Notes: generated by a model not told the origin, from the letters alone. A stretch of DNA of 64,000 nucleotides from a virus (IMGVR_UViG_3300044986_000731:26352-90351); one strand, 5' to 3'; numbered from the stretch's first letter, positions 14,751 through 33,543 are shown. Numbers and translations: made by a program.

Positions 14751-15153
14751 CTCACGAATCCTCTGTTTTTCCCGGGAAATACAAATCGCTTAGTACGCGG
14801 GCGTGATCACATACACACACACGCGCGCCTGCGAGGGGGTGGAGGAGGCAGGAGCGCGGGCAGGAGGCAGGCACCTGAGTGATCGCAGGGTCTCCTGTGA
14901 TCGCGCGGCAGCGCGGCAGGAACAAAATCTTCCTGCCGCGCTTCCTGCCGCGCATAAAACCCCGGAAAATGCGACACTTTCTCACGCGCGCGGCAGCGCG
15001 GCAGCAAAAACCAGATTTTTTCTTCGCGCGTGTCGCGAATTTTTTTCTTCCTGCCGCGCCTCGCCCAGACACACAAAGCATCACGCGAGAAGCGATCGCG
15101 AAGGCGAGGCGACCTCGCAGAGCCTTTAGGTTTCGCGCGATCAAACTCACTCG

Positions 15154-15258
15154 TTTGCAGAACCTCCAAGGTTTTGCAAAGCCCTCGCGAGTCTCGTTTG
15201 CAGAACCTCCAAGGTTTTGCAAAACCTCGCGTTTGCAGAACCTCCAAGGTTTTGCAAA
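15154..15258. repeat. three copies of 27-bp imperfect palindrome TTTGCAGAACCTCCAAGGTTTTGCAAA
   Basis: 15154-15180, 15197-15223, 15232-15258. Confidence 0.9.
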
Positions 15259-15424
15259 GCCCTCGCGAGTCGCGAACTTTACGTGCGAAAGCCCTCTCGC
15301 GAGAATGAATGAGCGGGCCTACTCCCGGGGAGTGTCGCGTTTGTGCGCGAACGCAAACGCAAGCCCGAGCGTGCGTCGTTCCGTGAGCGCCCGCAGAATT
15401 TTGGACCGGGGTTTTCCGGCAAAA

Positions 15425-15889
15425 ATGGGCAGAACTCCCGCCCCGACCTCGCTCAAGGTTCTCCGGGGCAATCCGGGTCAGCGACCGCTGAACGCCGAGG
15501 AGCCAATTCCGCCCCCGGCCGACCCGAACCCACCCTCGAACCTCGCCGGCGTCGCTCTTGAGAAGTGGGACGAGATGGTCGACCTGCTCTCGAAGATGGG
15601 CGTGTTCACTGCCGCCGATCGGCAGCCGCTCCAGCGGTACTGCCTCATGTACGAGCAGTGGCTCGCGCTCGAAGCGCACTGCCGTGAGCATGGTTGGACT
15701 CAGGTGACGCAGTCTGGCTACAGCCAGATCACCGCCGAGGCCACGCTCATCAAATCTCTTCGGGCCGACATGCTCGCGATCGAGCGACAGTTCGGCATGA
15801 CACCCGCCGCACGTTCCTCGATCAAGGCTCCCGGTGCCTCTGCCCCCGAAAATCCTCTTGCCGCGTATATCTCGCGACGAGGCGGTTGA
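15425..15889 (+). CDS. terminase small subunit (P27 family)
   Basis: MGRTPAPTSLKVLRGNPGQRPLN..EP; QFGMTPAARS. Confidence 0.9.
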   Translation: MGRTPAPTSLKVLRGNPGQRPLNAEEPIPPPADPNPPSNLAGVALEKWDEMVDLLSKMGVFTAADRQPLQRYCLMYEQWLALEAHCREHGWTQVTQSGYSQITAEATLIKSLRADMLAIERQFGMTPAARSSIKAPGASAPENPLAAYISRRGG

Positions 15890-17453
15890 ACAAGGCGAGC
15901 CGTTCTACTTCGACGAGGACAAGGCCGCACACGCGGTCGGGTTCTTCGAGAAGTTCTTGATCCACTCGAAGGGTCGCTTCGCCGGCAAGCCCTTCACGCT
16001 CTTGCCGTGGCAGAGGCACGACGTCATCGAGGAACTCTTCGGCTGGATGAGGGTCGACAACGACCGGAGGAAGTACAGGGTCGGGTACATCGAGGTTCCC
16101 AAAAAAAACGGAAAATCGACCCTCCTCTCCGGCATTGGACTCTACATGCTGATTGCTGACGGCGAGCCGTCGGCCGAGTGCTTCGGGGCGGCGAATTCCC
16201 GCGATCAGGCTGGCATCGTCTACAAGCAGATGAAAGAGTTGGTGCAGGCCAGCCCCTACCTCTCGTCGATGCTGGAGATCGTCGACTCTCGCAAGACCAT
16301 CGCGTGCGTCCCGACGAACTCTTTCTGGCGTGTGATCTCGTCTGACGCCGGCCGTCAGGAAGGTCTGAATATTCACTCGCTCTGTTATGACGAAATCCAT
16401 CAGAGCCGCGACCGGGCGCTATGGGATGCGGTTCGCTACGGTTCTATCTCCAGAGATCAGGGCCTCGTTCTGGCGATTACCACGGCCGGCGTCGACCGGG
16501 ACTCGATCGGCTACGAGTTGCACTCGCAGGCGATCAAGGTCATGGAAGACCCCTCGTACGATCACCAGTTCTTCGCCTACGTGCGTGCTGCGTCTCAGGA
16601 CGACGACTACCGCAGCCCGGCCGTCTGGAAGGCCGCAAATCCTTCGTTCGGCGTCACGATGGACGAGGAGACGTTCAAGGCAGACGTGCTCGAAGCCGAG
16701 AGGTCCGGCGGCTCGAAACTCGCCGGCTTCCTGCGATACAGGCTCAATATCTGGGTGCACGGCGAGAACAAGTTCGTGAACCTGACCCAGTGGGACAAGT
16801 GCAAGGGCCGGTCCGGCCACCTCGACAAGTCCCGTGTCTGGTACTGCGGACTCGACCTCGCTCAGACGTGGGACGTGAACGCATTCGTCGCCGTCTCGAA
16901 GGCTCACGACGACGTCTACGACTGCCTGTTCAAGTTCTGGATTCCAGCCGATAACGCTCATCAACGCCGCGAGGAAGTGCCGTACGTGCTCTGGGCGAAA
17001 GACGAGTCGACCGGACTCGTGATGACGCCCGGGGACACCTGCGACTACGAATTCATCAAGCGAGACATACTCGCGTTCGCCAAGGAGCGTCAGGTCGCGA
17101 AGGTTCTCTGCGACCCGCACAACGCCCACTACCTCACGCAACAACTTCAGGCCGAGGGCCTGACAGTGCTAGGCTTTTCACAGTCGTTCGCCTCGATGAA
17201 CTCGTCGACGCGAATGCTGGAGACATTGATCAGTCAAGGTCGTCTGAGGACTCAGGACAACCCTGTCATCAACTGGATGGCCGGCAATGCGGTGACGAAG
17301 ACCTCGGCCGAGGGGTACATCAAGATCGTGAAGCCCGCATCTACCAGCCCGGCGAGAGTCGACGGAATGGTCGCGCTCGTGATGGCACTCGCTGGCGCCA
17401 GTGACGCCGAGGCTGCCGCCAAGACTCCAGAGCCGGAGATTCTCGTCCTATGA
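15834..17453 (+). CDS. terminase large subunit (Terminase_1, HK97/D3-like)
   Basis: LLPWQ, EVPKKNGKS (Walker A), CYDEIH (Walker B), ITTAG, ANPS, GLDLA, RVDGMVALVMA. Confidence 0.95.
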   Translation: MPLPPKILLPRISRDEAVEQGEPFYFDEDKAAHAVGFFEKFLIHSKGRFAGKPFTLLPWQRHDVIEELFGWMRVDNDRRKYRVGYIEVPKKNGKSTLLSGIGLYMLIADGEPSAECFGAANSRDQAGIVYKQMKELVQASPYLSSMLEIVDSRKTIACVPTNSFWRVISSDAGRQEGLNIHSLCYDEIHQSRDRALWDAVRYGSISRDQGLVLAITTAGVDRDSIGYELHSQAIKVMEDPSYDHQFFAYVRAASQDDDYRSPAVWKAANPSFGVTMDEETFKADVLEAERSGGSKLAGFLRYRLNIWVHGENKFVNLTQWDKCKGRSGHLDKSRVWYCGLDLAQTWDVNAFVAVSKAHDDVYDCLFKFWIPADNAHQRREEVPYVLWAKDESTGLVMTPGDTCDYEFIKRDILAFAKERQVAKVLCDPHNAHYLTQQLQAEGLTVLGFSQSFASMNSSTRMLETLISQGRLRTQDNPVINWMAGNAVTKTSAEGYIKIVKPASTSPARVDGMVALVMALAGASDAEAAAKTPEPEILVL

Positions 17454-20400
17454 GCGAAGAGCGAGTTCTCTCTGACGTAGTCTGGACACCGGAACGCGGC
17501 TCTGCCGACCAGCCCGAAGTGCGGTCGATGTATTGGAACAACCTGCTCTTCGGCGACGACGGCTTCAACGGCCGGACCCAGACATCTGCGGATATCAGGA
17601 TCACGCCCGACACGGCCCTTCAGAGCACTGTCGTGCTCGCTGCGTGTCGCATCCTCGCCGAGTCGATCGCGAGCATGCCTCTCCACGTCTACCGCAGGAC
17701 GAAGGACGGCTACCGCGAGATCGCGAGCGACGTGCCGCTCTACAAGGTTCTCTCGTTTGCGCCCAACGAGTGGCAGACGAAGTTCGAGTTCTTCGAGCAG
17801 ATGGTGATGAACCTCACCCTGTGGGGTAACTCATACAGCCGCATTCGCTCGGGCAGGTACGGAGCCGTCTCGGCTCTCGACAACTTCCACCCGTCGAACA
17901 TGGAAGTTGAGCGTCTTGAGAACGGCCGACTGCGGTACTCGTACATGAACCCTGAGACCGGGCGAGTCGAGAGGTACTCGCAAGACGACATCATGCACGT
18001 CCGGTGGACGCCCGAGCCGAACGGCATCAAGGGCATGGTGCCTGTCGAGATCGCGAGAGAAGCGATCGCGCTGGCTCGTGCGTGCGAGATTCACGCCGGC
18101 CGGTTCTGGGCGAACTCAGCACGCCCGGGGATCGTGCTCCAGACGGACAGTTCTCTCTCGCCGGAGGCTGCCGAGAGGCTCCGCGACAACTGGGAGCGGA
18201 TTCATAGGGGAGTCGATCGAGCGAGCCGCACAGCGATCCTCACGAATGGACTCCGCGTCGAGCAGGTCGGATTCAACGCCGAGCAGTCCCAGTACGAGTC
18301 GACACGCCGCTTTCAGAGTGAGGAGATCGCGAGAGTCTACAGGTTGCCGCTCTCGCTCATTCAGGGCCAGTCCTCCGGAAGCATCGAGGAGAACGGTCAA
18401 GAGTTCGTCACCTACACGCTCGTGCCGTGGCTCCGACGCATCGAGTCGGCCATCTCGCGAAGCCTGATCTACAACGACGACGTGTTCTTCGCGGAGTTCG
18501 ACACGAAGGGCCTGATGCGGGGCAACTCAAACGCCCGCGCGGGCTTCTATTCGACGATGATCAACCTCGGCTTGATGACTCACAACGAATGCCGTCGCGC
18601 CGAGAACCTTCCACCCATCGGAGAGATCGGCGACCACCACCTCGTCGCGATGAATCTCCAGCCGCTCGAAGCGGCGACGAAGCCGAAGGAGCCGCCGCCG
18701 GGGATGCCGGGGATGCCGGGGCCACCGCCGGAGGCTGCCGGAGGCGTGCCGAGCCTGCCCGGGGTCAAGACTGGCAAGACTCCGACCGAGTCCGAGCAGG
18801 GCGAGGCCTCCGAGAAGAAGCCGGACGAGCCGCTCGTCGAGTACGCCGAGGGCAAGTTCGGCCGGGTCAAGCACGTCATGGAGGAAGGCACGCTCGACCT
18901 GAAGTCCGGCGAGAAGATCGAGGTCGAGCCGGGCAAGCCCGTGGCTCTCGTCGTCGACGAGGAGACCGGAGAAGAGGTCGGCGTCGAGGCGTCAAAACTC
19001 AAGCCAGTCGAGGAGAAGCCGGCCGTCGAGGAGAAGCGAGGCCTCACGCCACAGAGCGAGGCCCTGTACAAGTCGCAGGAAGAGATCGCGAGGAAGCACG
19101 GTCGGTGGAAGCAGGCCGACGCACACTACGTGCCACGCTCGCCGTTTGCCACCAAGGGCATGGTGTGCCGCAACTGCGTCTACTACGAGGACGGCGGCGC
19201 GTGCGAGATCGTCAAGGGTGGCATCAACCCGGACGGCATCTGCAAACTCTGGGTGATCCCGAGCGAGAAACTCGTCGAGACGCGATCGCCGGAGGAGGAG
19301 GCCCGCTCCGCCGACTGCGGTCGAGACGAGGGCGGCAGGTTCGGCTCTGGAAACAAATGCCAAGAGGACGGCAGCGGAGGTGGAGGCTCCGGGGGAGGAA
19401 TGTCGTCGCCGGCCGGCGGCGAGCCAGACAAGGTGTACGGGAGCGTATCCCCGGACGTGAAACTTCCGCCGCCTGTCCGCACGATCGACGCCGAGGCGTT
19501 GCTCGAACAAATCTCGAAGAACCCGAACGGATTCACGCTCGACCCGTACTCGGCTGAGTCTCCGTCCGACGGAATCATGGTGAGCGAGTTCAAAAACGAC
19601 TCGCGTCGCTCGGTGAAACTCAGTGCCAAGGACATCGTCACTAAGGAAGGGCGAGACTCGTTCGCAAACTGGCTGAAGTCAAACTCGGACGTGCTTCAGG
19701 GCTTCGAGGGCGAGCGGTTCGTCGGAGGGTGGAGAGCGGGCGACGACTTCTACATCGACATCAGCACTCGGTTCTCGCCGGAAGAGGCGGAGCGAGCACT
19801 GGAGGTCGGACGCGACTCGGGCCAGTTGGCTGTGTTCAACTTGGGCACGCTCAAGGAAACGTGGGTGCAGTACGACTCGGGCGACGACAGGAAGCCTCCT
19901 GAGTGGGACCGGGCGTTCGCACGCGCGAGGAAGGACGCTCAGGTCGATCAGGTCTACGGCGACGCTCCCGATCTTCAGGATGAGGACATCGCTGCCGACC
20001 TCTCGAAGCACGGCAAAAAGACCGTTCGGGCGTATAATCTCGCCGAGGAGACAGAGAATGGAACAGCCGCAGCGGTTCGACGTGCCGGCGAAGAAGAAGA
20101 GCCTGTTGGAGACGTACCGCGCGATGCGGACGTACTTCGAGAAGGTCGCGGAGAGCCAAGGCAAGACTCTCGATCCGTCGTGGTACGAGGACGGGCCGGA
20201 CCAGATGCCGCAACTGTACGAGGATCAGACGCCGCAAGACGGCTGATCGAGAACGCCGAGGCCGCATACCGAGCGGCGTTCGGCAGCACGCCCTTCCCTC
20301 GCGTGGAGTTCCGCGACATCGGCGACGCATACGCCTACTACTCGCCAGAAGACGACACGCTCTACGTGTCACCTGACGCAGGCGAGCCAGACGACTCAGA

Positions 20401-20656
20401 CGGCTGGACGTCGAGCGGCAACCCCCTGCTCCACGAGGCATGCCACCGCATCCACCGCACATCCGACGCCGACTCTTATCGAGACTCCGAGAGCGTCACG
20501 TTCACGCCCGAGCAGCGTGAACTGATCGAGGCCGAGGTCTCTCGGTACGCGGCAGTCAACGCCCGCGAGTTCATCGCGGAATACATCGCAGGACAGTTGT
20601 CTGGAAAGATTTACTCTCCTGATATCACAGCGATCGCAAGGTCGATCTGGCGATGA
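17450..20656 (+). CDS. HK97-family portal protein fused to a ~660-aa multidomain C-terminal extension
   Basis: aa ~45-405 portal (ACRILAESIASMPL, PNEWQT, LWGNSY, IARVYRLP, LMTHNECRRAENLPP); then Tudor-like, HiPIP-like, Cys tag, unknown domain, HEACH peptidase. Confidence 0.9.
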   Translation: MSEERVLSDVVWTPERGSADQPEVRSMYWNNLLFGDDGFNGRTQTSADIRITPDTALQSTVVLAACRILAESIASMPLHVYRRTKDGYREIASDVPLYKVLSFAPNEWQTKFEFFEQMVMNLTLWGNSYSRIRSGRYGAVSALDNFHPSNMEVERLENGRLRYSYMNPETGRVERYSQDDIMHVRWTPEPNGIKGMVPVEIAREAIALARACEIHAGRFWANSARPGIVLQTDSSLSPEAAERLRDNWERIHRGVDRASRTAILTNGLRVEQVGFNAEQSQYESTRRFQSEEIARVYRLPLSLIQGQSSGSIEENGQEFVTYTLVPWLRRIESAISRSLIYNDDVFFAEFDTKGLMRGNSNARAGFYSTMINLGLMTHNECRRAENLPPIGEIGDHHLVAMNLQPLEAATKPKEPPPGMPGMPGPPPEAAGGVPSLPGVKTGKTPTESEQGEASEKKPDEPLVEYAEGKFGRVKHVMEEGTLDLKSGEKIEVEPGKPVALVVDEETGEEVGVEASKLKPVEEKPAVEEKRGLTPQSEALYKSQEEIARKHGRWKQADAHYVPRSPFATKGMVCRNCVYYEDGGACEIVKGGINPDGICKLWVIPSEKLVETRSPEEEARSADCGRDEGGRFGSGNKCQEDGSGGGGSGGGMSSPAGGEPDKVYGSVSPDVKLPPPVRTIDAEALLEQISKNPNGFTLDPYSAESPSDGIMVSEFKNDSRRSVKLSAKDIVTKEGRDSFANWLKSNSDVLQGFEGERFVGGWRAGDDFYIDISTRFSPEEAERALEVGRDSGQLAVFNLGTLKETWVQYDSGDDRKPPEWDRAFARARKDAQVDQVYGDAPDLQDEDIAADLSKHGKKTVRAYNLAEETENGTAAAVRRAGEEEEPVGDVPRDADVLREGRGEPRQDSRSVVVRGRAGPDAATVRGSDAARRLIENAEAAYRAAFGSTPFPRVEFRDIGDAYAYYSPEDDTLYVSPDAGEPDDSDGWTSSGNPLLHEACHRIHRTSDADSYRDSESVTFTPEQRELIEAEVSRYAAVNAREFIAEYIAGQLSGKIYSPDITAIARSIWR
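20058..20246 (+). CDS. 62-aa gene nested in an alternate frame of the portal extension
   Basis: TATAAT 20033-38, GAGGAG 20045-50, ATG 20058; portal frame here reads like an off-frame R/G-rich linker. Confidence 0.55.
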   Translation: MEQPQRFDVPAKKKSLLETYRAMRTYFEKVAESQGKTLDPSWYEDGPDQMPQLYEDQTPQDG

Positions 20657-23600
20657 TTTTCCTAGAGAAGAAATACTCGGCTGCCGAGTATCGCAGTCTC
20701 GTCGAGGCTCGCGGAGACGGGCAGTGCACGGACAGTGATCGCCAAGAAGGCGGCAGGTTCGGCGATGGGAACGACTGCCAGAAGGAAGGAAGCGGTAGCG
20801 GCGATAGTTCCCAGACGAAAACGAAGTCCAAGGCGAAGTCCGGAGGCTCTGATGTCAAGGAGCCTCTCTCGTGGAGTCGCGGAAAGCCTCACATAACTCC
20901 GTTCGAGTCGGTTTCAAGCAACAACCCGACCCGGAGGTCTGAGGACGGAAAGAAGATTGAGTCCACGTCCATCGAAGGCGCCGTTGTCACTCAGGCAATC
21001 GCCGGAAAAGACGAGGTCGACCCAATATCTGTGGGCCGACACCTGCTTTCGGTTCAGGCAGAGCATCGCGGAAGGCCGATCGACACAACTGAAGAACTTC
21101 AGGGCGATGATTTCGAGTACATGGTCTCTGGTGTCGCTGCTCAGGTCGAAGCGGCTATGGCGAGAGGAGTGAGACCTAACTTTTACAGCCCGCAAGATCG
21201 CAAGGCCCAGATGGACGAGTACGCGAAGATTCAGCCTCTCATGCGAGGCGGAAGAACAGCGTCTGGATTTTGCATCGGCGTGGAAGGCCCGAACGGAGAG
21301 TGCGATCCGGGGAGTGATATATCTCCACAGGCTGAGTTCCTTTTCAGGGCCGCACAGGCTCTCACATCGCCAGAAGCAAACCCGTTCGAGAACATGCTCC
21401 GGGCGGACAAGGTATTGACTGCTTTCTTTGAGCAGCCGGACCCGGATAAAGCGAAACTTGGACTCGGACTGAGTATGCCCGGAGCCGGTGCCGGCGAGGC
21501 GATCAAAAACTTCTCTCGACTGCAAAAGATCATCGACAGGGTAGGGCTTGATGAGGCAAGGCGGCTTTTCTCCGAGCCGCCTCTCAGGGCCGGAGACTTC
21601 GAGAGATACTTTCTGGACAGGATACCGGGGACTGAGGGGGATCGTTACAAGGCAAACGACTACGCCGTCGACGAGGTCGTTCCTCTGTTCAGCATCTTTG
21701 GCCCGAAGGTTGGGCCTTTCTTCGCGAACAACACAGGAGACCTCGATGCGCTAACTGCGGACATCTGGTTCACTCGAACATGGGGAAGACTCTCCGGCGA
21801 GTTGATCGAGCAGACAAAGCCGTCGCTGGCAAAGACTCACGCTTCAAAACTCATGTCGATGACGTCAGAAGTTCCAAGAAAGGAACTCTCCGCAATAGGC
21901 GTGGACGGCAGGCAGTTCAGGACTGCCATCTCAGGAATGAAAAAGAGCGGCGTCATTCCGCAGACTGTGATTTCTTGGGCAGAGAAAAGAATCAAGCAGT
22001 ACTCAAAGGACGGGTTCCCGAGTCCGGAGAAAAAAACAGGAACGCAGGAGCGGTACGAACTCGACAGGCTTGCTATAGCAATCTCCAAAAATCAAACGAG
22101 AGTTCTCAAGACCCCAACAACAACCGTCATGCGGTCAAACATGATCCGCGTGATGAAGGAGGCGTCCGCTCGCACGGGAGTCCCCGTCGCGTACATGCAG
22201 GACATCCTGTGGCAAGACGAACAGGACGCTTGGGGGTCGCTCGGCTCTCGCACGACGACAACGCCGGGCGAACCGTCGCTTTACTCGGATGTGATCCGCA
22301 AGATCGTCGAGAACCCCCAGTACCGCGAAAAGCGACGAGCAAACAAGCGATCGACTGACGACGTCGGCGAGCCGCAGGAGTACGAGTACCTCACTGACCA
22401 GAAGGGTGGACTGGAGCAGTCGCTGTACGAGGCGTTTATTCAGAACTTGAGCGACGACGAGTTCGCAGACCTCGCCATCGACCTGCTTACTCGCAATGCC
22501 GAGAAGAACGACGAGCAGAGAAACTTCGCAGCCCTCGACGTCGAGCAACGCGCCGGCCTCGACTGCGGTCGGCAAGAAGGCGGCAGGTTCGGCCCGAAGA
22601 ACATGTGCGCCGCAGATGACGGCGGCGCGAACGTGACTGGTGGCGGAGCGACAGCAACAGCACCGACAGCACCGAGCACGAGATGGCAGTCCAGCAATCG
22701 CGGCATCGTCAAGTGGTCTGGCAGCAGCCTCGCGAAGGACAGCCCGATTAGCGGAGGCGAGAAACTCCGCTCTGTCGAGATCAGGAGGCCGAAGGAACTC
22801 GCCAAGGCGATGGGTGACGTCCTTCCTGAGTCAGCGACGCTAGACGACGTCGTGACGATCGGCGGTGGTGCCGTGCGAGGGTCTGACCTGATGGTCACTG
22901 GCGTCGGAGACACGATCTCCACGCAGATGACTACGCCCGTCGATCCTTCGGAGCCTGAAGGCTGGAGGGTGTACTCCGACGTGCACATGTCAGGCGCAGA
23001 CGGCGTGATCACCGCCGTCGATTACGGACTCCTCGAAATCTATCCGCCCGGAGCAGACGGCGATGATCCGTTCTATGACCCGCCGTCGCCGGACGACGCG
23101 GTCGTCAGTCGCATCACATCCATGATGATGGAGAGAATGACCGACTCGCTGATGACAGCAGAGAGGCTCGGTGCAGAGCAAGCAACGACGACGGCCATCG
23201 GGGATGGGCACTCTGACGCCCAGTGGAAGGGGTACCGACTCTGGCCGCAGTTCGGGTTCGACGGCCCGATCACTCCACGCACGGTGAGCATGATCGAGGA
23301 CGAGCCGGACCTGACGTTCCTCTCGGACGAAGCCAGAGACAAGTGGGACGCTGGCGAGCAACTCACAGTGCAGGACATCATCGCAACGCGAGAGGGCCGG
23401 CTCTGGTGGGACGAGAATGGATCGTCCACCGATATGTCATTCGACTTCAGCGACAAGTCATCGAAGGGCTACCGGCAGTTCGAGCGGATGAAGCGGCTCC
23501 TGCCGAAACTTCGCGAGCGAAACAAGAGCCGGAGTTGGATCGAGGCGTCCGAGTCTCGCAACTGCGCGAGAGAGGCGACCGGGCAGTTCGCCGACGGCAA

Positions 23601-26600: not shown

Positions 26601-27159
26601 ATCGCTGAAGGACGTCTCGTTTCACATTCAGACGGCAAGTTCGATGGCTAAATGGTCTGGCTTGCCTGCATCTGATTACGAGGGAACTCAGGGCACATAC
26701 TTCCCCGGAGACGATGCGGTTCATGTCGTAGCCGGAACAATGCCTCAGTATGTGACGCCTGAGTATCTTTACGAGACAGAGTACTCCTCCACTCCATCTC
26801 CCGCTCACACGCTCGTGCACGAAGTCGCGCATAAGGAGCACTACGAGAACGCCAGCCGCGAACTTGGAATGCCGAGGCAAGCCAACGCAACCGACGCGCA
26901 GTCGCTGCGATGGGCGAAAAAAGTCGAGTCCGCGATTGAGCAAAACTTAGAGCGCGAAGGAGAAAAAGACCCCGCATGGGCTGAGAGGGTTACGTCGAAG
27001 GTTCCGACCTTGGGGTTTTATGCGACAACCGACCCGTTTGAGTTTGTGGCCGAGTACTCGACGGCGGTGAAACTGGGTTACAAGAAAAACGATGCCGACC
27101 TCGACAGAATGTGCAAGGCACTTCTAGCACCAGTTCCCAGAAAGGAGAAGCGAGCATGA
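20653..27159 (+). CDS. 2168-aa polyvalent head-associated polyprotein
   Basis: Six Cys-tag repeats separating HhH-glycosylase-like, 3 GNAT-like, one unknown and one HEVAH metallopeptidase domain. Confidence 0.8.
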   Translation: MIFLEKKYSAAEYRSLVEARGDGQCTDSDRQEGGRFGDGNDCQKEGSGSGDSSQTKTKSKAKSGGSDVKEPLSWSRGKPHITPFESVSSNNPTRRSEDGKKIESTSIEGAVVTQAIAGKDEVDPISVGRHLLSVQAEHRGRPIDTTEELQGDDFEYMVSGVAAQVEAAMARGVRPNFYSPQDRKAQMDEYAKIQPLMRGGRTASGFCIGVEGPNGECDPGSDISPQAEFLFRAAQALTSPEANPFENMLRADKVLTAFFEQPDPDKAKLGLGLSMPGAGAGEAIKNFSRLQKIIDRVGLDEARRLFSEPPLRAGDFERYFLDRIPGTEGDRYKANDYAVDEVVPLFSIFGPKVGPFFANNTGDLDALTADIWFTRTWGRLSGELIEQTKPSLAKTHASKLMSMTSEVPRKELSAIGVDGRQFRTAISGMKKSGVIPQTVISWAEKRIKQYSKDGFPSPEKKTGTQERYELDRLAIAISKNQTRVLKTPTTTVMRSNMIRVMKEASARTGVPVAYMQDILWQDEQDAWGSLGSRTTTTPGEPSLYSDVIRKIVENPQYREKRRANKRSTDDVGEPQEYEYLTDQKGGLEQSLYEAFIQNLSDDEFADLAIDLLTRNAEKNDEQRNFAALDVEQRAGLDCGRQEGGRFGPKNMCAADDGGANVTGGGATATAPTAPSTRWQSSNRGIVKWSGSSLAKDSPISGGEKLRSVEIRRPKELAKAMGDVLPESATLDDVVTIGGGAVRGSDLMVTGVGDTISTQMTTPVDPSEPEGWRVYSDVHMSGADGVITAVDYGLLEIYPPGADGDDPFYDPPSPDDAVVSRITSMMMERMTDSLMTAERLGAEQATTTAIGDGHSDAQWKGYRLWPQFGFDGPITPRTVSMIEDEPDLTFLSDEARDKWDAGEQLTVQDIIATREGRLWWDENGSSTDMSFDFSDKSSKGYRQFERMKRLLPKLRERNKSRSWIEASESRNCAREATGQFADGNECQEKGTGTAESQDSWREDGGTVLWDSERPPVRGELASLEVQGGRDVAKAMESVGVDSLDKVVSLGGGTARGAEVRVSAYGTHTVAVSTRIPIDPQAPQSDDPYEGAVTSSVMISRGRDGKSTLHYGSLYTPMSVSSASATKEDRLRIASLLKEHFLESLSTAEAVGISSADMAAAGDAEDKYLQGYRLWPQFGFDGEVPNLSEVPDEIVLRAAGIDIPPAGSTRIPHATVIRSLRSRVRSLTVQQLISVREGDRWWDENGTDVSLSLDLTDKTSLGYKRYQEAKKSLARLKERNKSRDWLDWLDDLESRDADCGRDESGRFGTGNDCGAGDGQPSAKEDSKARDARIKQASKSLPQSIAATDAKSLGLAAHKQFSPVGVSKNSDNLPIKSDDELRRALRGMTGPKGSQVPQRDLVGAHRRLDKGHPVDLRIDINAFEDFDTYAVTVHEHAGGKGVGKPIGFDSLVRLGGRVSFSSDENVATKIAMGIGKTPIATVKGMFDPSRDIPSDIDSWTPVGFDPKKAAYFYDKRTGDEVTGGTDAVSVGNSVFVRVPEYANPPRNAARQYRNAGFWGLESRDADCGRDEGGRFGSGNKCQEDGEGPAAEKVTWSAGSGEPPFEGAEKAASVSVSGNKEVTDSLDTLGVDKSSIVDLAGAAGGSVFIRPAPDLTTKLPGGVLPVLISWDRPFGGVDYGIEGSSAVGKNDKGESILYHSTVTVDPRAKDTPAKRHAAATAFYSMMSESVQAARKAGISEVRFNASGSKVDKSWKGYTIWPRMGFDAPLPADLKAKLPETLSHAKSLLDLHATREGTQWWSENGREVDVSFRLDDPSSPQARIMSRFIKRFSTNRRDMPLGAGDGWLSPADLARFDELWEEIWDEGDLDEYEFAESRSADCGRDVGGRFDQGNQCQRGAGKVASLARSGASHEELVSAISEAIGTKRGWFSGPEKGESSPSEVCAALGLNVENDWIVDQQHEEASQSDREAIARTIAECYSAVQSSPSLKDVSFHIQTASSMAKWSGLPASDYEGTQGTYFPGDDAVHVVAGTMPQYVTPEYLYETEYSSTPSPAHTLVHEVAHKEHYENASRELGMPRQANATDAQSLRWAKKVESAIEQNLEREGEKDPAWAERVTSKVPTLGFYATTDPFEFVAEYSTAVKLGYKKNDADLDRMCKALLAPVPRKEKRA

Positions 27160-27290
27160 CTCAGGTCGTGAAGACAGACAAGAACGAGAGCACTGAAAGC
27201 ATTCGCAAGAGGCTTGAGAAGATCGGCGACCGGAAGGTTCCTGAGTTCTGGAAGAAGATGTTCACTGGAAAAAACGATGGCAAAGCCTGA
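27156..27290 (+). CDS. 44-aa small protein (MTQVVKTDKNESTESIRKRLEK...)
   Basis: AAGGAG RBS, ATGA overlap with the upstream stop, overlaps the protease start; below ORF-track cutoff. Confidence 0.55.
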   Translation: MTQVVKTDKNESTESIRKRLEKIGDRKVPEFWKKMFTGKNDGKA

Positions 27291-29343
27291 AAAATACGCG
27301 CACATCGACTTCAAGCCTCCCAACGGCGTTCGCCGCGAGGCCGAGTACGGATTGAAACTCCGCCGCGAGCACGGACGCGGAGGCACGGCCGTGGGCATCG
27401 CCCGCGCGAGAGACTTGTCGAACGGAGTTGAAGTCTCGCCGAGCACGGTGCGGCGGATGAAGGCGTTCTTCGATAGGCATGCGTCGGATGCGAAGGCGCC
27501 CGGTTTCAATCGCGGTGACGAGCAGTATCCCTCAAACGGGCTGATAGCCAACAAATTGTGGGGTGGCCCGAGTGGCTACTCGTGGTCAAAGAAGGTAGTC
27601 GCACAAATGGAAGCGGCCGACCGCAAGGCCGGAGACAGCCGCTCGCTCCGCCCGTACGGCTCGACGCACGGCATGAAACCGCGAGTCAAGGTCGTTTACG
27701 GTGCCCCCGGCTCTGGCAAGAGCGATTACGTGTGGGCGAAGAAACGCGATGACGATGTCGTCTTCGACTTCGATCGGATCATGTCTGCAATCTCCGGCCT
27801 GCCGTATCGCCAGCACAACAAGAGACTGATCTCTTACTGCACAGACATTCGAGCGCTTATCCTGAAAAAAGCGTTGTACGGAAACGATAATACGACGTGG
27901 ATCATCACGACTCGTGTGAACGATGACTTGGCTGATTCGCTCGGAGACATACCGGTCGAGTACATCGAGATGGAGGCGACGAAGGACGAGTGCCTGAAGC
28001 GGGTCAACGAGTCACCCGAGTGGCAACCAGTCATCGAGGAGATCAAACAGGTGATCGACGAATACTTTTCCGATCGCGAAGAGCAGCGTTCCGCAGACAC
28101 CCGCGCGGGCGTCGAGCGCCGGTACCTCGGCAACTTCTCGCAGACAGAGAAGGCCGACCCGGGCATGCTGCGAGTCGAGCGTCGCGCTGATCCGTCGACT
28201 GGAAAGCCACGGACGTACCTTGTCGGCTATGCGGCCGTGTTTCACAAGGACAGTTTGATGCTGGGTGATTTCATCGAGCGCATTCACCCGGACGCATTCC
28301 AGATTGTGAAGGACCGTCAGGACGAGGACGGAAAGCCTCTGGAAACGCGATGCCTTTTCAACCACAGCGCCGATCACCTCCTCGGCAGGTTCCCGACGAC
28401 GATGCGAATGACGGTCGACGACAAGGGACTGCGGTACGAGTGCCTGCTGCCAGAGTCTCGCGCGGACGTTGCAGAGTTGGTGGAAAGAGGCGACCTCAAG
28501 GGTTCAAGTTTCAGTTTCGTCGTGCACCCGGACGGTGGAGAGGAATGGAAGACCGAGGACGGGCAGTCAATTAGAGTCGTAAAAAAAATAAAGGCGCTCC
28601 TCGATTGTGGCCCAGTCACCTACCCGGCGTATGGCGATGCCAGCGTTGCAGTCGCGAAGAGAAGTTACGAGACGCACGTCATTGAGCGACGCAGTGACGT
28701 GAAAATGGCAGGAGCCAAGAAGACGAAGCGTCCTCGCCGGCCTGACGTGTCCTCTTCGGTCGACAGCCTGAAGGCTTTCCTCGCAGAGCGGCGAAGCGGC
28801 GAGTGCGGCCGTGACGAGTCAGGCCGGTTCGGCTCGGGCAACAAGTGCCAAGACGACGGCGGAGGAGACGAAGACTCTGATCCGCCTGCCGAGCAGCCCG
28901 CATCCGACAGCGGCAAGGGCGTCGCTGAGTTGTCTCCGAAGCCGAAGTCATCTCGCCCCAACTACATGGAAGTCTCCGGTCCGATGACCAAGGCCAAGGC
29001 AAAGGCCGCTCAGAAATTCATCGACGACGCGCGTCAGGGGCAACTCGAACGCGGCGGCAAGGACGGAGGTCAGTCCGACGACGGAGGTGGTGTGCAGACG
29101 TGGAGCAAGGGCGACTCGTATCCGTGGACGACGAAGCAGGTCGGCACCGACTCTGGGTACCTGCAAGCACAGCACCCAGACGGATCGAAGACTCAGAAGT
29201 ACACGTTCGAGCGTGGCGACACAAAGCCAGCACTGGACGCGCTAAACGCCGAACTGAAGAAGAAGGGCAAGAAGCCGGACACCCGTAGTCTGGTTACGCA
29301 CACTATCGCAGAGACCATGAAGTTCTTGCGGGAGCGACGCTGA
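27277..29343 (+). CDS. HK97-family prohead protease (Peptidase S78) with N- and C-terminal fused domains
   Basis: GYAAVF, FIERIHPDAF, LFNH...LGR, DDKGL, GSSFSF, PVTYPAY; N-terminal helical domain, GAPGSGKS P-loop, C-terminal Cys tag. Confidence 0.9.
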   Translation: MAKPEKYAHIDFKPPNGVRREAEYGLKLRREHGRGGTAVGIARARDLSNGVEVSPSTVRRMKAFFDRHASDAKAPGFNRGDEQYPSNGLIANKLWGGPSGYSWSKKVVAQMEAADRKAGDSRSLRPYGSTHGMKPRVKVVYGAPGSGKSDYVWAKKRDDDVVFDFDRIMSAISGLPYRQHNKRLISYCTDIRALILKKALYGNDNTTWIITTRVNDDLADSLGDIPVEYIEMEATKDECLKRVNESPEWQPVIEEIKQVIDEYFSDREEQRSADTRAGVERRYLGNFSQTEKADPGMLRVERRADPSTGKPRTYLVGYAAVFHKDSLMLGDFIERIHPDAFQIVKDRQDEDGKPLETRCLFNHSADHLLGRFPTTMRMTVDDKGLRYECLLPESRADVAELVERGDLKGSSFSFVVHPDGGEEWKTEDGQSIRVVKKIKALLDCGPVTYPAYGDASVAVAKRSYETHVIERRSDVKMAGAKKTKRPRRPDVSSSVDSLKAFLAERRSGECGRDESGRFGSGNKCQDDGGGDEDSDPPAEQPASDSGKGVAELSPKPKSSRPNYMEVSGPMTKAKAKAAQKFIDDARQGQLERGGKDGGQSDDGGGVQTWSKGDSYPWTTKQVGTDSGYLQAQHPDGSKTQKYTFERGDTKPALDALNAELKKKGKKPDTRSLVTHTIAETMKFLRERR

Positions 29344-31733
29344 TGCCGAGTCTTTCGACACAGGCCCGTATCGCGAGCCTGACGGCGTTTGCCGAGGCCC
29401 GAGCAGGCGACTGCGGGCGGGACAGCGGGCGGTTCGCGAAGGGGAATAACTGCCAGTCATCGGCTGCTTCGCCGCCACGGCCGAAGACTCTTGAGCAGGA
29501 GCGGATCGACGCTGCGAGAGACGAGGGCGAGGAGCCTGAGCAGGCCACGAAGGCTGACGTCACTGAAGACGTGAAGACGTACATCCGACTGTCCGGCTAC
29601 GGCTGGGCTGAGTTCGTGCGCAAGTCTCAGTCGCACAGCCCCGACACGATTCGCAATGCGAGGCACGCGAAGAACAAGGCCGTGCAAATCTACCGCGAAG
29701 AGGGCGCCGCCGGTTTCGGGCGATACCTCGAAGAGATCGGCCTGCGAAGTCTAAGCCCGACCGAGGCTCGCCGCATCAGGCCGATCAGGCAACGCCCGTC
29801 CCTGCCGGGACAGATGCGGCTGCCTCTCTCCGGTGACAACTGCGAGCGAAATCCGGGGGGCACGTTCGCGAAGGGCAATACGTGCCAAGAAGGCGCCGGC
29901 CTGTCGCGAGATGAGCAGGAGAATACTGGGAGGCTTTACGACAGACTGTCCTCGACTGAAGAGCCATTTATTACGCTGGGGCCGAGCGAGGCTGCCAAGA
30001 CTCCGGGGTTTGAAAAAGCCCATCAGGTGAGCGTAAGTAGCCCGAACGACGTATCGCGGATACTTCGCGAGAACAGCGTAAACACAAAGCAACTCGCCGC
30101 GCTTGGTGTCGCCACTGAGCCGGGCGCGAAAGTTACAGTGTCGGGATACGGAAACAGGCTTGTCGTTAGGTCAAATATCCCGGTCCCTATTTCAGCCGAA
30201 GAACTAGTCGCAGCCGGGGCTGTCAGCCCCGGACAATCCGCGCAGGAAAAGGCAGCAGAAGTAATCGCAGATACAGGCGCCCACATCAGCATTGACATGA
30301 CGCTTGGTGGCGTCGACAGCCAAATTCATTACGGACTCTTTCAGGTCAGCCACAGTATTCAAAACGCTATCGCCATGCACGCATCTGTTCAGGAGTCGCC
30401 AGACGGCCCTTGGACTGACGAGCAAAAGGCTCTTGCGGAACTGGGAAATAAAGCCAACCGTTTTTTCGGCGGCGCAATCATAGACCTCATGGGCCAGTCT
30501 CTTTTTGAGGCTGAAAAAGCGGGAATTCATACGGCCGAGACAAGCGCCGTTGGTCGTGGACGAGGGGGCGGTCAAGGAGCAGGTCGGGCCGACTCATTTA
30601 CTTTCAAAGGGTACTCGCTGTGGCCGAGGTTCGGGTTCGACGGCGAGATTCCTTCTTCTACTCAGATTCAGATCGACCCGATTCTGCGGGAAATTTTCGC
30701 GGAGGGGCCTGACTCTCCGAGGCGTCGCGTTCTCACTGAGGATGGCTGGGAAAAATGGCAGAGCGGCTCGATGCGTATTCAAGACCTCGTCGAGACTCCG
30801 CAGGGCGAACGGATGTGGCGAGACTACGGATCGTCAGCCCACATGTCTATCGACTTTCGCGACAAGGAGTCGAAGGGATACAAGAAATTCACAGAGGCAA
30901 AGGAAACGGCTTCTCGCGCGAAGCGGCGGCGAGAAAGACGCGACTTGTCTCAGTGGCTCTGGGACACTGACTTCCGCTTCGATCCCGAGATTTTCTTCGT
31001 CGAACGACGAATGACTCGGTTTCTCGAATCGCGAAACTGCGGCACCGGAGCCGGCGGCTTCCAGAAGGGCAACACCTGCGGAGGCGTCGCTGCCGACGTC
31101 GCCGCATCGGCAGCCGAGGGTGCAGTCACAGGCGCTGCCGTGGCTGCCGGCAAGACGGCGTTCTTCCCGCCGACCGTTGCGACGGGAGCCGCCGTCGGCG
31201 CTGCATACGGCGTGATCGGTGGTCTCTACGACGCAGCGATGTCCCCTACGCGGGCTGGCAAAGCCATCGCGGCTGTCGGCAGCACGGACGAGAAGGTCGC
31301 GACTCTCGTGAAAGGCCTCGGAGGCTCACCGAAGTCTGTGGCGAAGTCGAAAGACGGCAAGAGGCTGACGCTCGATATCAAGGGCAGCAAGGGCGAGTCA
31401 AAGTTCCGGGTCGAGATCGAGAAGGACTCGATCACCATCACGCCGTCGAAAGAAAAACTGAGCGACGACGAGGTCGAGACGATCAAGCAGGTGGCGGCTG
31501 ATCACTCCGGCAGAGAGGTGAGGGTCATCGTCGACAAGGTGCCTGTCTCGACCATGAGCAAACTGGCGAAGGCCGGGTTCCGAATCGGCGTGACGGTGAC
31601 TGGCGCAATGGCCGCAGGCCTGCTGGTCCCCATGATTCCGTCGGTGGCCGGCACCGCAATCGAGAAGGTGGGCGGTCTCGACATCGAGAAGTCCGGAGTG
31701 CTGAAGCCGATCGACAAGGTGTTCGGTCTGTAA
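29343..31733 (+). CDS. 796-aa polyvalent head-associated polyprotein
   Basis: Three Cys tags, GNAT-like KGYSLWPRFGFDG domain, C-terminal glycine-zipper/hydrophobic domain. Confidence 0.75.
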   Translation: MPSLSTQARIASLTAFAEARAGDCGRDSGRFAKGNNCQSSAASPPRPKTLEQERIDAARDEGEEPEQATKADVTEDVKTYIRLSGYGWAEFVRKSQSHSPDTIRNARHAKNKAVQIYREEGAAGFGRYLEEIGLRSLSPTEARRIRPIRQRPSLPGQMRLPLSGDNCERNPGGTFAKGNTCQEGAGLSRDEQENTGRLYDRLSSTEEPFITLGPSEAAKTPGFEKAHQVSVSSPNDVSRILRENSVNTKQLAALGVATEPGAKVTVSGYGNRLVVRSNIPVPISAEELVAAGAVSPGQSAQEKAAEVIADTGAHISIDMTLGGVDSQIHYGLFQVSHSIQNAIAMHASVQESPDGPWTDEQKALAELGNKANRFFGGAIIDLMGQSLFEAEKAGIHTAETSAVGRGRGGGQGAGRADSFTFKGYSLWPRFGFDGEIPSSTQIQIDPILREIFAEGPDSPRRRVLTEDGWEKWQSGSMRIQDLVETPQGERMWRDYGSSAHMSIDFRDKESKGYKKFTEAKETASRAKRRRERRDLSQWLWDTDFRFDPEIFFVERRMTRFLESRNCGTGAGGFQKGNTCGGVAADVAASAAEGAVTGAAVAAGKTAFFPPTVATGAAVGAAYGVIGGLYDAAMSPTRAGKAIAAVGSTDEKVATLVKGLGGSPKSVAKSKDGKRLTLDIKGSKGESKFRVEIEKDSITITPSKEKLSDDEVETIKQVAADHSGREVRVIVDKVPVSTMSKLAKAGFRIGVTVTGAMAAGLLVPMIPSVAGTAIEKVGGLDIEKSGVLKPIDKVFGL

Positions 31734-31748
31734 TCACGGAGGCACATC

Positions 31749-31922
31749 GTGCAATCAGGCGACAGGTGTCGCATCTGCGGCAAGGGCCGCATGACCACTC
31801 GCACCAGCAAGCCCGCTGGCGACAACCAAGTGCGATACCTGCGATGCGGGTGCTGCGGCGCTCAGGCGCGGTCAGTTGTCCCCGTCGACCGAGCGTGGCG
31901 TCGCGCGGAAAAAGTTGTGTGA
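31749..31922 (+). CDS. Ogr/Delta-like zinc-ribbon protein (57 aa)
   Basis: GGAGG RBS, GTG; CRICGKGRMTTRTSKPAGDNQVRYLRCGCCG; not in the ORF track. Confidence 0.65.
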   Translation: MQSGDRCRICGKGRMTTRTSKPAGDNQVRYLRCGCCGAQARSVVPVDRAWRRAEKVV

Positions 31923-31937
31923 AACAACTTTTTTTTG
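31909..31937. terminator. AT-rich hairpin, possible bidirectional intrinsic terminator
   Basis: AAAAAGTTGT-GTGAA-ACAACTTTTT(TT). Confidence 0.55.
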
Positions 31938-32031
31938 CTTTCGCCTTCTTGGGGGCGTGTGTGCGAGAGATGTAGTGTGAGGAAAGCCCGCCACAGGGGC
32001 GCTCACACACACCCGCAGGGACATACCAGTC

Positions 32032-33543
32032 ATGGACTCGTCTGCCAAGGTCAAGTCGCTCCTCGATGAACTCGCCGCCGTTCTCGCTGAGATGGGCGCG
32101 ATGCAGGACGAGGAGGCCCCCGCCGAGCGCATGTACGGCGAGGACGAGCCGAAGGAAGACGAGAAGCGGGAGATGCCCGAGGGCGAGGGCGAGGACGAGG
32201 ACGAGGACGAGGTCGAGGAGAACGGCTACGCCCCGAAGGACGTCGAGGACACCGAGGCCACTCCTGCCGAGGGCGACGACGAGAAGGAGCGGAAACTCCG
32301 CTGCCTCTGCTCCCGCGCGGAGAAACTCCGCAAGAGGATCACCTTCTACGAAGGCATCCAGAAGAAAGAACTCGAACTGCGATCGGTGCTCGATAAGGCG
32401 ACCCCGGCCGAGGTCGCTGGTTACCCCACTCGGGAGAAGCGGAACGTGCACATCTACCACAACCTGCCGGGCGCCGGCCGTCTGAAGAACTTCAAGGGCG
32501 CGAACGCCGAGGAGCGGGCTTACCGCGCCGGCCAGTACTTCCGCGCCACGCTGCTCGGCGACAAGAACGCCGCTCGGTGGTGTTCTGACCACGGCGTCGA
32601 GTCTCGTGCACAGTCCGAAGGCGTGAACTCGAAGGGCGGTGTGTTTTTGCAGGAGGAGGTTCTCAACGAGGTGATCGTCCTCACCGAGGAGTATGGGGCC
32701 TTCCCTGCGAACGCTCGAAACATCCAGATGAAGTCGGACACCCTCGTGGTGCCTCGACGGACTGGCGGTCTCAGCGCGTATTTCGTCGGGGAGAATTCGA
32801 GTATCCCCGATTCCGACGCTAGTTGGGATCGCGTGCAGATCGTAGCCAAGAAGGCTGCGGTCTCGAACCGCCTCAGCACCGAGGTGATGGACGACTCTGC
32901 GATTTCTCTCGGTGACTATTTGGTAGGCGAAATTTCGAGAAGCCTCAGCGAACTCGTGGACACCGTCGGGTTCGTGGGGACAGGGAGCGGTGACCACGGT
33001 GGAATCGTCGGAGCATGCACCAAGATCGTCGACGGCACGCATGACGCCAGCGTCGTGACCGCCGCCGCCGGCAACACCGGTGCCCTGACCCTCGACATCG
33101 ACGACCTGATCGCTTGTGCAGGTCGACTCCCGCTCTTTGCGAGGGCGAATGCCAAGTGGTATTGCAGTCCCGCAGTTTTCGCGGCCTCCGTGCAGCGGCT
33201 CGGCCTCGTGAACAACGTCGGACTCTCGGGTGGCAACACGGCTGCGAACCTCGCTTCGCCCGCCGAACTTCGCCTGCTCGGTGCCCCGGTGGTGTTCGTC
33301 CACACGATGAGCAACGTGATCGGCGCCGACCCCGGCGTGGTCAAGTTTCTCTACGGTGACCTCTCCATGTCGTCGATGTACGCGACTCGTCGCGGCCTGA
33401 CCGTGAAGAAGTCGGACGAGCGGTACATCGAGCAGGATCAGTCGTTGATCGTCTGTTCAATGAGGTTTGACTGCGTTACGCATGACTGCGGCGACCAAGT
33501 CAAGGCCGGACCGATCGTGGCTCTCAAGACTGCGGCTTCGTGA
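32032..33543 (+). CDS. HK97-fold major capsid protein with long acidic N-terminal delta/scaffold domain
   Basis: ESR|AQSEG..SKGG.FLQEE; AYFVGE; LLGAPV; YGDLS; RFD near the C-terminus. Confidence 0.92.
   Translation: MDSSAKVKSLLDELAAVLAEMGAMQDEEAPAERMYGEDEPKEDEKREMPEGEGEDEDEDEVEENGYAPKDVEDTEATPAEGDDEKERKLRCLCSRAEKLRKRITFYEGIQKKELELRSVLDKATPAEVAGYPTREKRNVHIYHNLPGAGRLKNFKGANAEERAYRAGQYFRATLLGDKNAARWCSDHGVESRAQSEGVNSKGGVFLQEEVLNEVIVLTEEYGAFPANARNIQMKSDTLVVPRRTGGLSAYFVGENSSIPDSDASWDRVQIVAKKAAVSNRLSTEVMDDSAISLGDYLVGEISRSLSELVDTVGFVGTGSGDHGGIVGACTKIVDGTHDASVVTAAAGNTGALTLDIDDLIACAGRLPLFARANAKWYCSPAVFAASVQRLGLVNNVGLSGGNTAANLASPAELRLLGAPVVFVHTMSNVIGADPGVVKFLYGDLSMSSMYATRRGLTVKKSDERYIEQDQSLIVCSMRFDCVTHDCGDQVKAGPIVALKTAAS

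Follow-up and report, generated by a model that had tools for sequence, protein, structure and literature searches.

We analysed a 64-kb window of DNA from an uncultured phage (IMGVR_UViG_3300044986_000731:26352-90351; the window, 64,000 nucleotides in all, is the terminal 64 kb of one 90,351-bp virus record) and describe here a short junction cassette, an E-x-R tripeptide followed by a loop bracketed by two cysteines, that recurs within four adjacent giant or fused proteins of the phage's head operon. The operon runs from the small and large terminase genes (TerS and TerL) through the portal, a 2168-aa protein, a prohead protease fusion and a 796-aa protein to the major capsid protein (MCP), a head-tail adaptor and a head closure gene. 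Its members from TerS to the MCP are given below, with positions counted from the first letter of the window.

14879-15889: small terminase, part of the head operon
15834-17453: large terminase, part of the head operon
17450..20656, + strand: portal with a C-terminal extension, 1068 aa (Phage_portal, 1.1e-95; portal_HK97)
20653..27159, + strand: 2168-aa polyvalent protein with six junctions
27214..29343, + strand: prohead protease fusion (Pfam, PHROG and NCBIfam matches)
29343..31733, + strand: 796-aa protein, made up of a 20-aa leader, loop, small domain, loop, domain X copy 4, loop and module c
32032..33543, + strand: MCP with an acidic N-terminal scaffold (delta) domain

The coordinates and families of the five ORFs from the portal to the MCP agree with an earlier note that had been made on this DNA from the sequence alone. 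The portal, the protease and the MCP all exceed the curated cut-offs of the HK97 models in Pfam and NCBIfam (Phage_portal/portal_HK97, Peptidase_S78/proheadase_HK97 and Phage_capsid). The 2168-aa and 796-aa proteins matched no family in Pfam, PHROG or NCBIfam, and the 2168-aa protein gave no match to Phage_Mu_F (PF04233) at E <= 0.01.

The four giant or fused proteins are strings of separate modules. In the portal, the core (aa 61-386, Pfam) is followed by a Pro/Glu-rich linker, a four-cysteine (Cys4) segment, the first junction, an unnamed domain and a zincin-like module. The 2168-aa protein begins with a leader and then runs through domain A, X1, X2, domain B, X3 and a zincin, with a copy of the two-cysteine loop, hereafter the tag, ahead of each of these six modules. 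The protease fusion is ordered as an N-terminal domain called prN (phrog_2859), a P-loop domain, E-Q-R followed by S-A-D, the Peptidase_S78 (S78) domain, E-R-R followed by S-D, a linker, junction 8 and a C-terminal domain.

A two-cysteine tag at module starts

When the tag core was written as a regular expression and run over all six frames of the full 90,351-bp genome, it found exactly 11 matches, all in-frame in the four adjacent head ORFs and at the positions that the earlier note had listed. A minimal DNA pattern that fixes only C, G, F, N and C at a 15-residue spacing occurs 8 times in the window, where shuffles lead one to expect 0.01, and 0/100 shuffles reach 8; the other 3 copies have loops of 14 or 18 residues. 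The cassette as a whole takes the form of, often, an amphipathic helix, then E-x-R, 1-4 residues (usually S-A-D), the two-Cys loop of 14-18 residues and a flexible linker, and the consensus of the loop in the window is C-G-R-D-x-x-G-R-F-x-x-G-N-x-C. The 11 junctions are as follows, all on the + strand.

19298..19360, +: junction 1, in the portal; E-A-R, S-A-D and Cys-loop CGRDEGGRFGSGNKC
20704..20778, +: junction 2, in the 2168-aa protein; 17-aa N-terminal leader, E-A-R and 18-residue loop CTDSDRQEGGRFGDGNDC
22543..22608, +: junction 3, in the 2168-aa protein; E-Q-R and Cys-loop
23551..23607, +: junction 4, in the 2168-aa protein; E-S-R-N and Cys-loop
24523..24585, +: junction 5, in the 2168-aa protein; E-S-R-D-A-D and Cys-loop
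25324..25386, +: junction 6, in the 2168-aa protein; E-S-R-D-A-D and Cys-loop
26263..26325, +: junction 7, in the 2168-aa protein; E-S-R-S-A-D and Cys-loop
28786..28848, +: junction 8, in the protease fusion; helix SLKAFLA, E-R-R, S-G-E and Cys-loop
29394..29453, +: junction 9, in the 796-aa protein; leader MPSLSTQARIASLTAFA, E-A-R and 14-residue loop
29763..29885, +: junction 10, in the 796-aa protein; E-A-R, 23-residue basic Pro-rich spacer and Cys-loop CERNPGGTFAKGNTC
31026..31079, +: junction 11, in the 796-aa protein; helix RFL, E-S-R-N and CGTGAGGFQKGNTC

E-x-R stands 1-4 residues ahead of the first Cys in 10/11 tags, as had been claimed, and in the eleventh (Cys at 29841) the tripeptide, E141-A142-R143, lies 23 residues ahead, with the basic Pro-rich spacer between. 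The tags mark module starts in the window and in relatives. The earlier note's remark that most tags are followed by a G/S/D linker also holds; the last tag is an exception and leads directly into a Gly/Ala-rich hydrophobic stretch.

Two of the tag copies are identical at 24/32 residues, and only 13 of those 24 use the same codon. Since the copies differ at synonymous sites, it is the peptide and not a DNA repeat that is conserved and under selection, and for the same reason we rejected the idea of a DNA repeat serving as a recombination site. In an alignment of 67 tag copies the two Cys, G-F and G-N are invariant or nearly so. In the predicted structure of domain X, the tag is poorly ordered and not packed on the domain (pLDDT 47-71 over the first 40 residues against 86.9 overall). 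The Cys-loop is a portable, strongly selected peptide, for which address, anchor and hook, as in the earlier note, are all candidate roles.

In most of the tag copies inspected, D or N directly precedes the first Cys, a feature that would fit a tag that breaks its own [D/N]-Cys bond through an N-to-S acyl shift or through Asn/Asp cyclisation upon some trigger in the head or in the host. We regard such self-cleavage as highly improbable, given that whole clades have G, A or E ahead of the Cys (e.g., PSAG, RKTG and IRE before the C), that no other intein- or Hedgehog-like block is present, and that a loop of this kind is so short.

Spread of the tag among uncultured phages

Back-translated patterns of the tag located the CGRD form in 21 stretches on 18 IMG/VR contigs and the CGTG form in at least 120 IMG/VR matches, the loop variant of junction 11 being the dominant form in distant phages. 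A tag profile built from the 67 copies and searched against 1.84 billion cluster representatives retrieved 250 protein clusters at E <= 1e-3, 95 at <= 1e-10 and 15 at <= 1e-30. One short cassette opens nearly every cargo unit here and occurs in at least 250 protein clusters of uncultured phages.

Counts on tag-bearing representatives refer, here and below, to the best 150 of these 250 clusters. They carry 407 tags in all, with 2-6 copies in 141/150; the first tag lies within the first 70 residues in 84/149, and 104/150 have at least one module in common with the window. The tags separate modules of shuffled order (t-X-t-A-t-X..., PORTAL-t-..., prN-S78-t-t-prC, where t is the tag), and three carriers recur, namely portal-..., prN-(P-loop)-S78-tag-tag-C-domain and tag-X-tag-c. 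In one cluster, the portal and the giant protein form a single ORF of 2,366-2,421 aa, and the two relatives P0009 and P0010 are without the module between junctions 9 and 10, the gap running exactly from EAR to EAR. In public sources the tag-bearing proteins go by the labels hypothetical, uncharacterized or 'HK97 family phage portal protein'. Forty-six representatives have no module in common with the window, and a Pfam scan of 45 of them found ART-PolyVal in 11, ADPrib_exo_Tox in 7, Phage_Mu_F in 6, GNAT in 4, portal families in 4, Zeta_toxin in 2 and Topoisom_I in 2.

The earlier note had proposed a profile scan for head association, and this association was borne out: a TerL, portal, MCP or S78 gene lies in 128/145 tag-bearing IMG/VR stretches (1.4-15 kb). 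The tag hardly varies among phages whose portals belong to three families and whose capsids are of different types, and this near-invariance argues against a fast-evolving phage protein as its partner. It is more likely that the tag binds something generic, such as a metal, itself, or a host or DNA feature, or that it is a redox-sensitive handle, than that it docks on one phage structural protein.

We would put forward only tentatively, and with some doubt, the wider idea that the two-Cys loop (C-G-[RT]-x-x-G-G-F-x-x-G-N-x-C) is a universal portable handle of head cargo, whatever the protease, portal or capsid family. Such a handle could be a loading or ejection address, or else a redox or metal latch by which cargo is held in the oxidised virion and freed in the reducing host. 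Were this so, hundreds of uncultured phage lineages would share one plug-in grammar of leader, cut site, Cys-loop, linker and enzyme.

The junctions and the capsid maturation site

The tripeptide that precedes the tags also occurs in the capsid protein and around the protease domain, at three further sites.

32599..32607, +: E-S-R of the MCP (aa 190-192) at the delta/core junction, with a predicted cut between R192 and A193
28081..28089, +: E-Q-R followed by S-A-D and no tag, just ahead of the S78 domain
28684..28692, +: E-R-R followed by S-D, just past the S78 domain

The MCP site, which lies where the earlier note had placed it, is 9 residues ahead of the Pfam Phage_capsid match (starting at aa 202). 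The junction, [ED]-[SA]-R followed by A, is kept in 10/10 aligned MCPs of the clade (61-89% identical), and among 24 aligned MCPs, A193 is nearly invariant and E196, N199 and G202 are invariant. The S78 domain is bracketed on both sides by E-x-R followed by S. The cassette is in this way tied by sequence to the capsid's own maturation site.

On balance we think it probable that the four proteins are polyvalent cargo polyproteins cut by S78 after the Arg of E-x-R, each product bearing the Cys-loop tag and being ejected with the DNA. The polyproteins would enter the prohead by means of their portal, protease or N-terminal-leader parts, and the HK97-family S78 protease would cut after the Arg of E-x-R, the same site that is expected for its removal of the MCP scaffold domain. 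About a dozen proteins would be freed in this manner, each beginning with the Cys-loop, and would remain in the head to exit with the DNA. Because the presumed cut precedes the tag, the tag would stay on the cargo; and since the portal and protease fusions, which are already inside the prohead, also carry the tag at the joint, it is probably not needed only for entry.

The support for cutting at E-x-R is indirect. Of the 406 tags considered for upstream residues, 279 are preceded by an R at a distance of no more than 7 residues, and in 206 of these 279 P3 is E. At 21 loci where the MCP junction and tags could both be read, the residue at P1 is R in both at 9 and K in both at 7, R-K mixes number 0, and at 5 no basic residue adjoins the tag. 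Four further records agree, two with R at both sites (L147 and L150) and two with K (L151 and L152). The five loci without an adjacent basic residue are one clade, and 3/3 inspected have, 20-28 residues ahead of the tag, a leader helix that ends in E-x-R; the tag gene with that leader helix sits between the protease and MCP genes. The exact EAR-to-EAR gap in P0009 and P0010, and the occurrence of the zincin module as a gene of its own with leader, E-S-R and tag, also speak for cutting at these sites and for units that behave as cassettes. Lastly, the C-terminal residue is K or R in 56/150 tag-bearing representatives, against 13.5% expected from composition.

Several observations nevertheless weigh against this reading. 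The earlier note had proposed to look for covariation of the upstream tripeptide with the MCP site, and the R/R and K/K pairs without mixes are in keeping with that, but in the MCP tree the K-type MCPs are one clade, with 9 rows on one branch (support 98/99). The agreement thus reflects one evolutionary event and not repeated co-variation, and repeated independent R/K switches at P1 were not borne out. E-x-R occurs 51 times in the five proteins, where their composition predicts 30.6, and many of these tripeptides are inside domains, so that E-x-R alone cannot define the site. In the K clade, neither the MCPs nor the tags retain E at P3. S78 was found in only 63/145 tag-bearing stretches, many of which are short, and two zincin-fold modules in the same locus are an alternative candidate protease. 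In addition, searches of three 35-kb tag-bearing phages (G006-G008) with the Pfam capsid model, PHROGs, Pfam, jackhmmer and hhalign turned up neither an S78 nor a capsid protein fused to a scaffold; because no S78 was found there, cutting by S78 cannot explain the conservation of the tag in these phages.

The portal of these phages is of lambda type, as is the terminase in G006 and G007, their capsid protein is short, and E-x-[LF]-D precedes their tags. A 360-aa protein behind the prN protein of G006, which looked protease-like by eye, was considered as a hidden S78 and rejected (hhalign probability 0.15). In clades with F or L ahead of the tag, capsid proteins either have no scaffold domain or were not found. 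A complex prediction with full-length MCP, the S78 domain and the junction peptide scored 0.04 against a mark of 0.32 and, having no controls, is evidence neither way.

An alternative is that the junctions are uncut. The Cys-loop would then be a metal- or disulfide-stabilised knuckle that tethers or spaces modules (to the portal, scaffold, DNA or each other), E-x-R would be a conserved helix cap, and the giant proteins would be packaged whole like the N4 virion RNA polymerase, which is packaged unprocessed according to the portion of Iyer et al. (PMC5512222) that concerns it. The conservation of the Cys, G-F and G-N over 67 copies, three portal families and different capsids far exceeds what a protease site needs, and the tag persists where S78 is not detected. 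We still consider uncut junctions unlikely, for P1 tracks the capsid junction, whether R or K, separate genes begin with a leader, E-S-R and tag, the C-termini are enriched in K/R, and E-x-R followed by S-A-D also stands just ahead of the protease domain, where there is no tag.

Zincin modules and the choice of protease

The S78 domain of the protease fusion and two modules with a zincin-like signature are the candidate proteases of the locus.

28207..28674, +: Peptidase_S78, HK97-family prohead protease domain (PF04586, 7.1e-30)
portal aa ~940-1068: zincin-like module at the portal C-terminus (HEACH...EFIAEY)
26335..27156, +: zincin-fold module at the C-terminus of the 2168-aa protein (HEVAHKEH ... 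EFVAEY)

The S78 domain scores 104.8 bits with PF04586 against a cut-off of 21 and 65.1 with TIGR01543 against 59, and in our S78 alignment (A5) H88 and S136, which we take from HK97 to be the catalytic pair, are invariant in 43/43 proteases.

The HExxHxxH and E..AEY motifs of the zincin modules (H162, E163, H166, H169, E236 and E240) are invariant in 6/6 aligned sequences. A structure predicted from this six-row alignment (pLDDT 82.5) matched the anthrax lethal factor catalytic domain 1yqy_A (Z 9.4, rmsd 4.7, 198 aligned) and Pro-Pro endopeptidases (Z 6.1 and 5.9). By this fold match of a predicted model, the C-terminal modules of the portal and the 2168-aa protein have a probable zincin fold, a statement about fold and not about activity. 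By sequence, phmmer against PDB chains gave nothing relevant and Pfam nothing above threshold, and only two homologues of the module at 150-480 aa were found. The module also occurs as a separate 345-aa gene (P0160) with its own leader, E-S-R and tag.

The zincin modules might themselves process the junctions, before packaging, in the head or after injection, with S78 only maturing the capsid. Besides the invariant motifs and the fold match, the portal-tag-zincin arrangement is kept in the distant phages G006 (L155, 5373-9097) and G007 (L157/L158), where no S78 was found and where the order is portal, tag, zincin and then a prN protein with tag. Zincin-like peptidases are also named as likely processing enzymes for polyvalent proteins in the relevant passage of Iyer et al. 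2017 (PMC5512222). However, the zincin modules are rarer, being present in 29/150 tag-bearing representatives and 10/145 stretches against 63/145 stretches for S78, and the junction tripeptide is the same as that of the capsid maturation site, the known kind of substrate of S78. Moreover, a tag precedes the zincins as it precedes the other cargo modules, so that they may be effectors. Taken together, we judge processing by the zincins to be quite unlikely and retain S78 as the presumed junction protease.

Comparison with known packaged proteins

How proteins that are injected together with the DNA are selected, loaded and released is known for few model phages of the tailed kind. A general class to compare with is that of the polyvalent proteins (Iyer, Burroughs, Anand, de Souza, Aravind 2017, J Bacteriol; PMC5512222), which, as far as the parts of that paper used here describe them, combine many unrelated enzyme domains per polypeptide, are encoded beside portal or terminase genes, are often fused to portal or MuF, and were proposed to be packaged and injected, with processing predicted by zincin-like or, rarely, assemblin-like peptidases. 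The four window ORFs are best placed among the phage-type polyvalent proteins. The 2168-aa protein joins disparate domains (A, X, X, B, X, zincin), as does the protease fusion; the window phage has portal-terminase packaging genes beside its giant proteins; and distant tag-bearing proteins carry the class's own Pfam families, e.g., ART-PolyVal in 11/45 and Phage_Mu_F in 6/45. No PolyVal Pfam model matched the window proteins themselves, though a portal fusion and a zincin fold are present. A difference from the class as portrayed in those parts is that the window's tie to the MCP maturation site points to S78 and not to a zincin.

The earlier note had spoken of a candidate new system. This was too strong, as packaged and processed polyvalent proteins, portal fusions included, have been published (PMC5512222, in the sections on this class), but the junction cassette stood up as new. 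It is absent from the main text of Iyer et al. 2017 (PMC5512222), which makes no mention of a cysteine motif, glycine or linker; the supplements may list the motif among that paper's '40 novel uncharacterized domains'. A literature search found no description of the cassette, and six literal tag strings occurred in none of the papers searched. We regard these as polyvalent proteins whose junction cassette is defined, widespread and apparently undescribed, the cassette itself being the new part.

The nearest analogues that have been studied by experiment are the capsid targeting sequence of T4 and the protease motif shared by SPN3US head proteins. T4 takes diverse anti-defence proteins into its scaffolding core by a short conserved N-terminal signal, as told in the relevant part of PMC3012670. 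At the level of sequence, the window is similar in having leaders of 17-20 residues that end in the presumed protease site E-A-R, with E-S-R in the MCP. The T4 capsid targeting signal precedes the cut and is removed, whereas the most conserved element of the window is the Cys-loop, which follows E-x-R and would remain with the cargo. The T4 cargo consists of separate small proteins and that of the window of polyproteins, and the proteases differ as well, T4 gp21 cutting after Glu and the HK97-type S78 of the window, presumably, after Arg/Lys.

In the giant phages of the SPN3US/phiKZ type, one protease motif is found on the capsid protein, portal, protease itself and ejection proteins, and SPN3US has 14 sites in nine substrates and propeptides with multiple motif copies, by the portions of PMC10052503 drawn on here. 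Unlike the arrangement in the window, the cuts described in those portions remove propeptides rather than separating enzymes strung together, and there is no conserved peptide behind the cut.

HK97 resembles the window in that the window's portal, protease and MCP pass the cut-offs of HK97 models and the MCP has an N-terminal scaffold domain. A 2013 paper by Duda, Oh and Hendrix reportedly deals, going by its title, with encapsidation signals borne by the protease. The portal and protease of HK97 are not known to carry cargo modules, nor HK97 to have a tag. A looser parallel is offered by encapsulins, whose cargo-loading peptides are short, conserved, joined by a flexible Gly/Ser linker and mark cargo for the interior of an HK97-fold shell. 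By analogy, the candidate cargo in the window carries a short conserved peptide and a flexible linker; the encapsulin peptides differ in being usually C-terminal, of another sequence and without cysteines.

If the proposed processing is true, the cassette would allow anti-defence enzymes that are injected to be sought in metagenomes by sequence, the candidates here being GNAT-like, zincin, ART, Zeta-toxin-like and topoisomerase-like modules, and the leader, cut site and tag together would be a simple experimental handle on cargo loading, to be tested in HK97-type capsids. The processing of polyvalent proteins, as predicted in 2017 in the passages cited, would become testable, with named bonds.

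Other modules and minor features

The remaining modules that could be delimited in the four proteins are listed here.

22600..23538, +: domain X copy 1, putative GNAT-like fold
23605..24522, +: domain X copy 2, putative GNAT-like fold (the copy modelled)
25390..26256, +: domain X copy 3
29895..31007, +: domain X copy 4
27277-27663: prN domain (phrog_2859; GRGGT and LWGG motifs), N-terminus of the protease gene
27673-28095: P-loop (GAPGSGKS) kinase- or ATPase-like domain (phrog_4581; AAA_33 weakly)
31080..31730, +: module c, end of the 796-aa protein, with Gly/Ala-rich hydrophobic stretches and a conserved C-terminal domain

Ten separate modules searched against Pfam at E <= 1 gave only sub-threshold noise, and NCBIfam had no match for the tag or for the 2168-aa and 796-aa proteins. 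Domain X, of which four paralogous modules lie between tags, was modelled with AlphaFold2 from a 31-row alignment (pLDDT 86.9). Its best structural neighbour is 1yre_A, at a Z of 7.2 that is below Z 8 (rmsd 4.2, 137 aligned), and the neighbours inspected are nearly all GNAT-fold acetyltransferases, including tRNA-acetylating toxins and an anti-CRISPR acetyltransferase. Foldseek returned no row at E <= 0.001 for domain X, and Pfam no match. With scores in this middle range, the four X modules are putative GNAT-fold domains.

The prN domain is found in 88/145 tag-bearing viral stretches, against 63/145 for S78. It is followed by a tag in 24 ORFs, and over the 41 ORFs that have both, the median distance from the end of prN to the next tag is ~48 residues. 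In the Atlas, prN matches only unnamed viral clusters, the nearest families being DUF6321 and DUF5824. We dropped prN as a candidate receptor of the tag, as it is itself tag-flanked like a cargo module and its Atlas clusters are unnamed.

The protease fusion has three further features. The ORF as listed begins at a TTG (27214), and an ATG 21 codons on (27277, MAKPEKY...) is the likelier start. At the N-terminal edge of the S78 domain there is a V-E-R-R (28111-28122, aa 300-303) whose E and second R are invariant in 43/43 proteases from different clades. The protein ends in ...FLRERR (29320-29343), and its relatives in FLEARR, FLKDRR or FLRDRRA, i.e., in a junction-like helix and E-x-R with nothing beyond, as if mimicking a cut product.

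Cysteines also stand out in the MCP and the portal. The MCP scaffold has R-C-L-C (32290-32310, aa ~87-93), kept in 10/10 MCPs of the clade, and a further Cys 8 residues ahead of the junction (W-C-x-D-H-G-V) is nearly invariant in the 24 MCPs. The CxC of the scaffold was considered as a partner of the tag in a shared metal site and dropped, as it is present in the window's clade and not in the other MCPs inspected. In the portal extension, the Cys4 segment (19120-19260, aa ~557-604; CRNC...C...C) could be a metal site, and a comparable Cys-rich segment is present in a 1389-aa portal fusion of G007.

Module c is nearly invariant among 5 homologues and is present in 30/150 tag-bearing representatives. 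A glycine-zipper-like Gly/Ala-rich stretch of ~55 residues comes directly after the last tag (31080-31300) and a second one near the C-terminus, both in 5/5 homologues. Judging from the sequence, module c is possibly a membrane-active and perhaps membrane-inserting ejection protein.

The 796-aa protein had no match by tblastn against GenBank phages, and a scan of viral contigs gave no relative. Among contigs from one genome per species, its sole match is a contig of a Planctomycetaceae metagenome-assembled genome (CAWFAF010000051.1, L001), with 27% identity over the domain X core, which is a weak hint at the host group.

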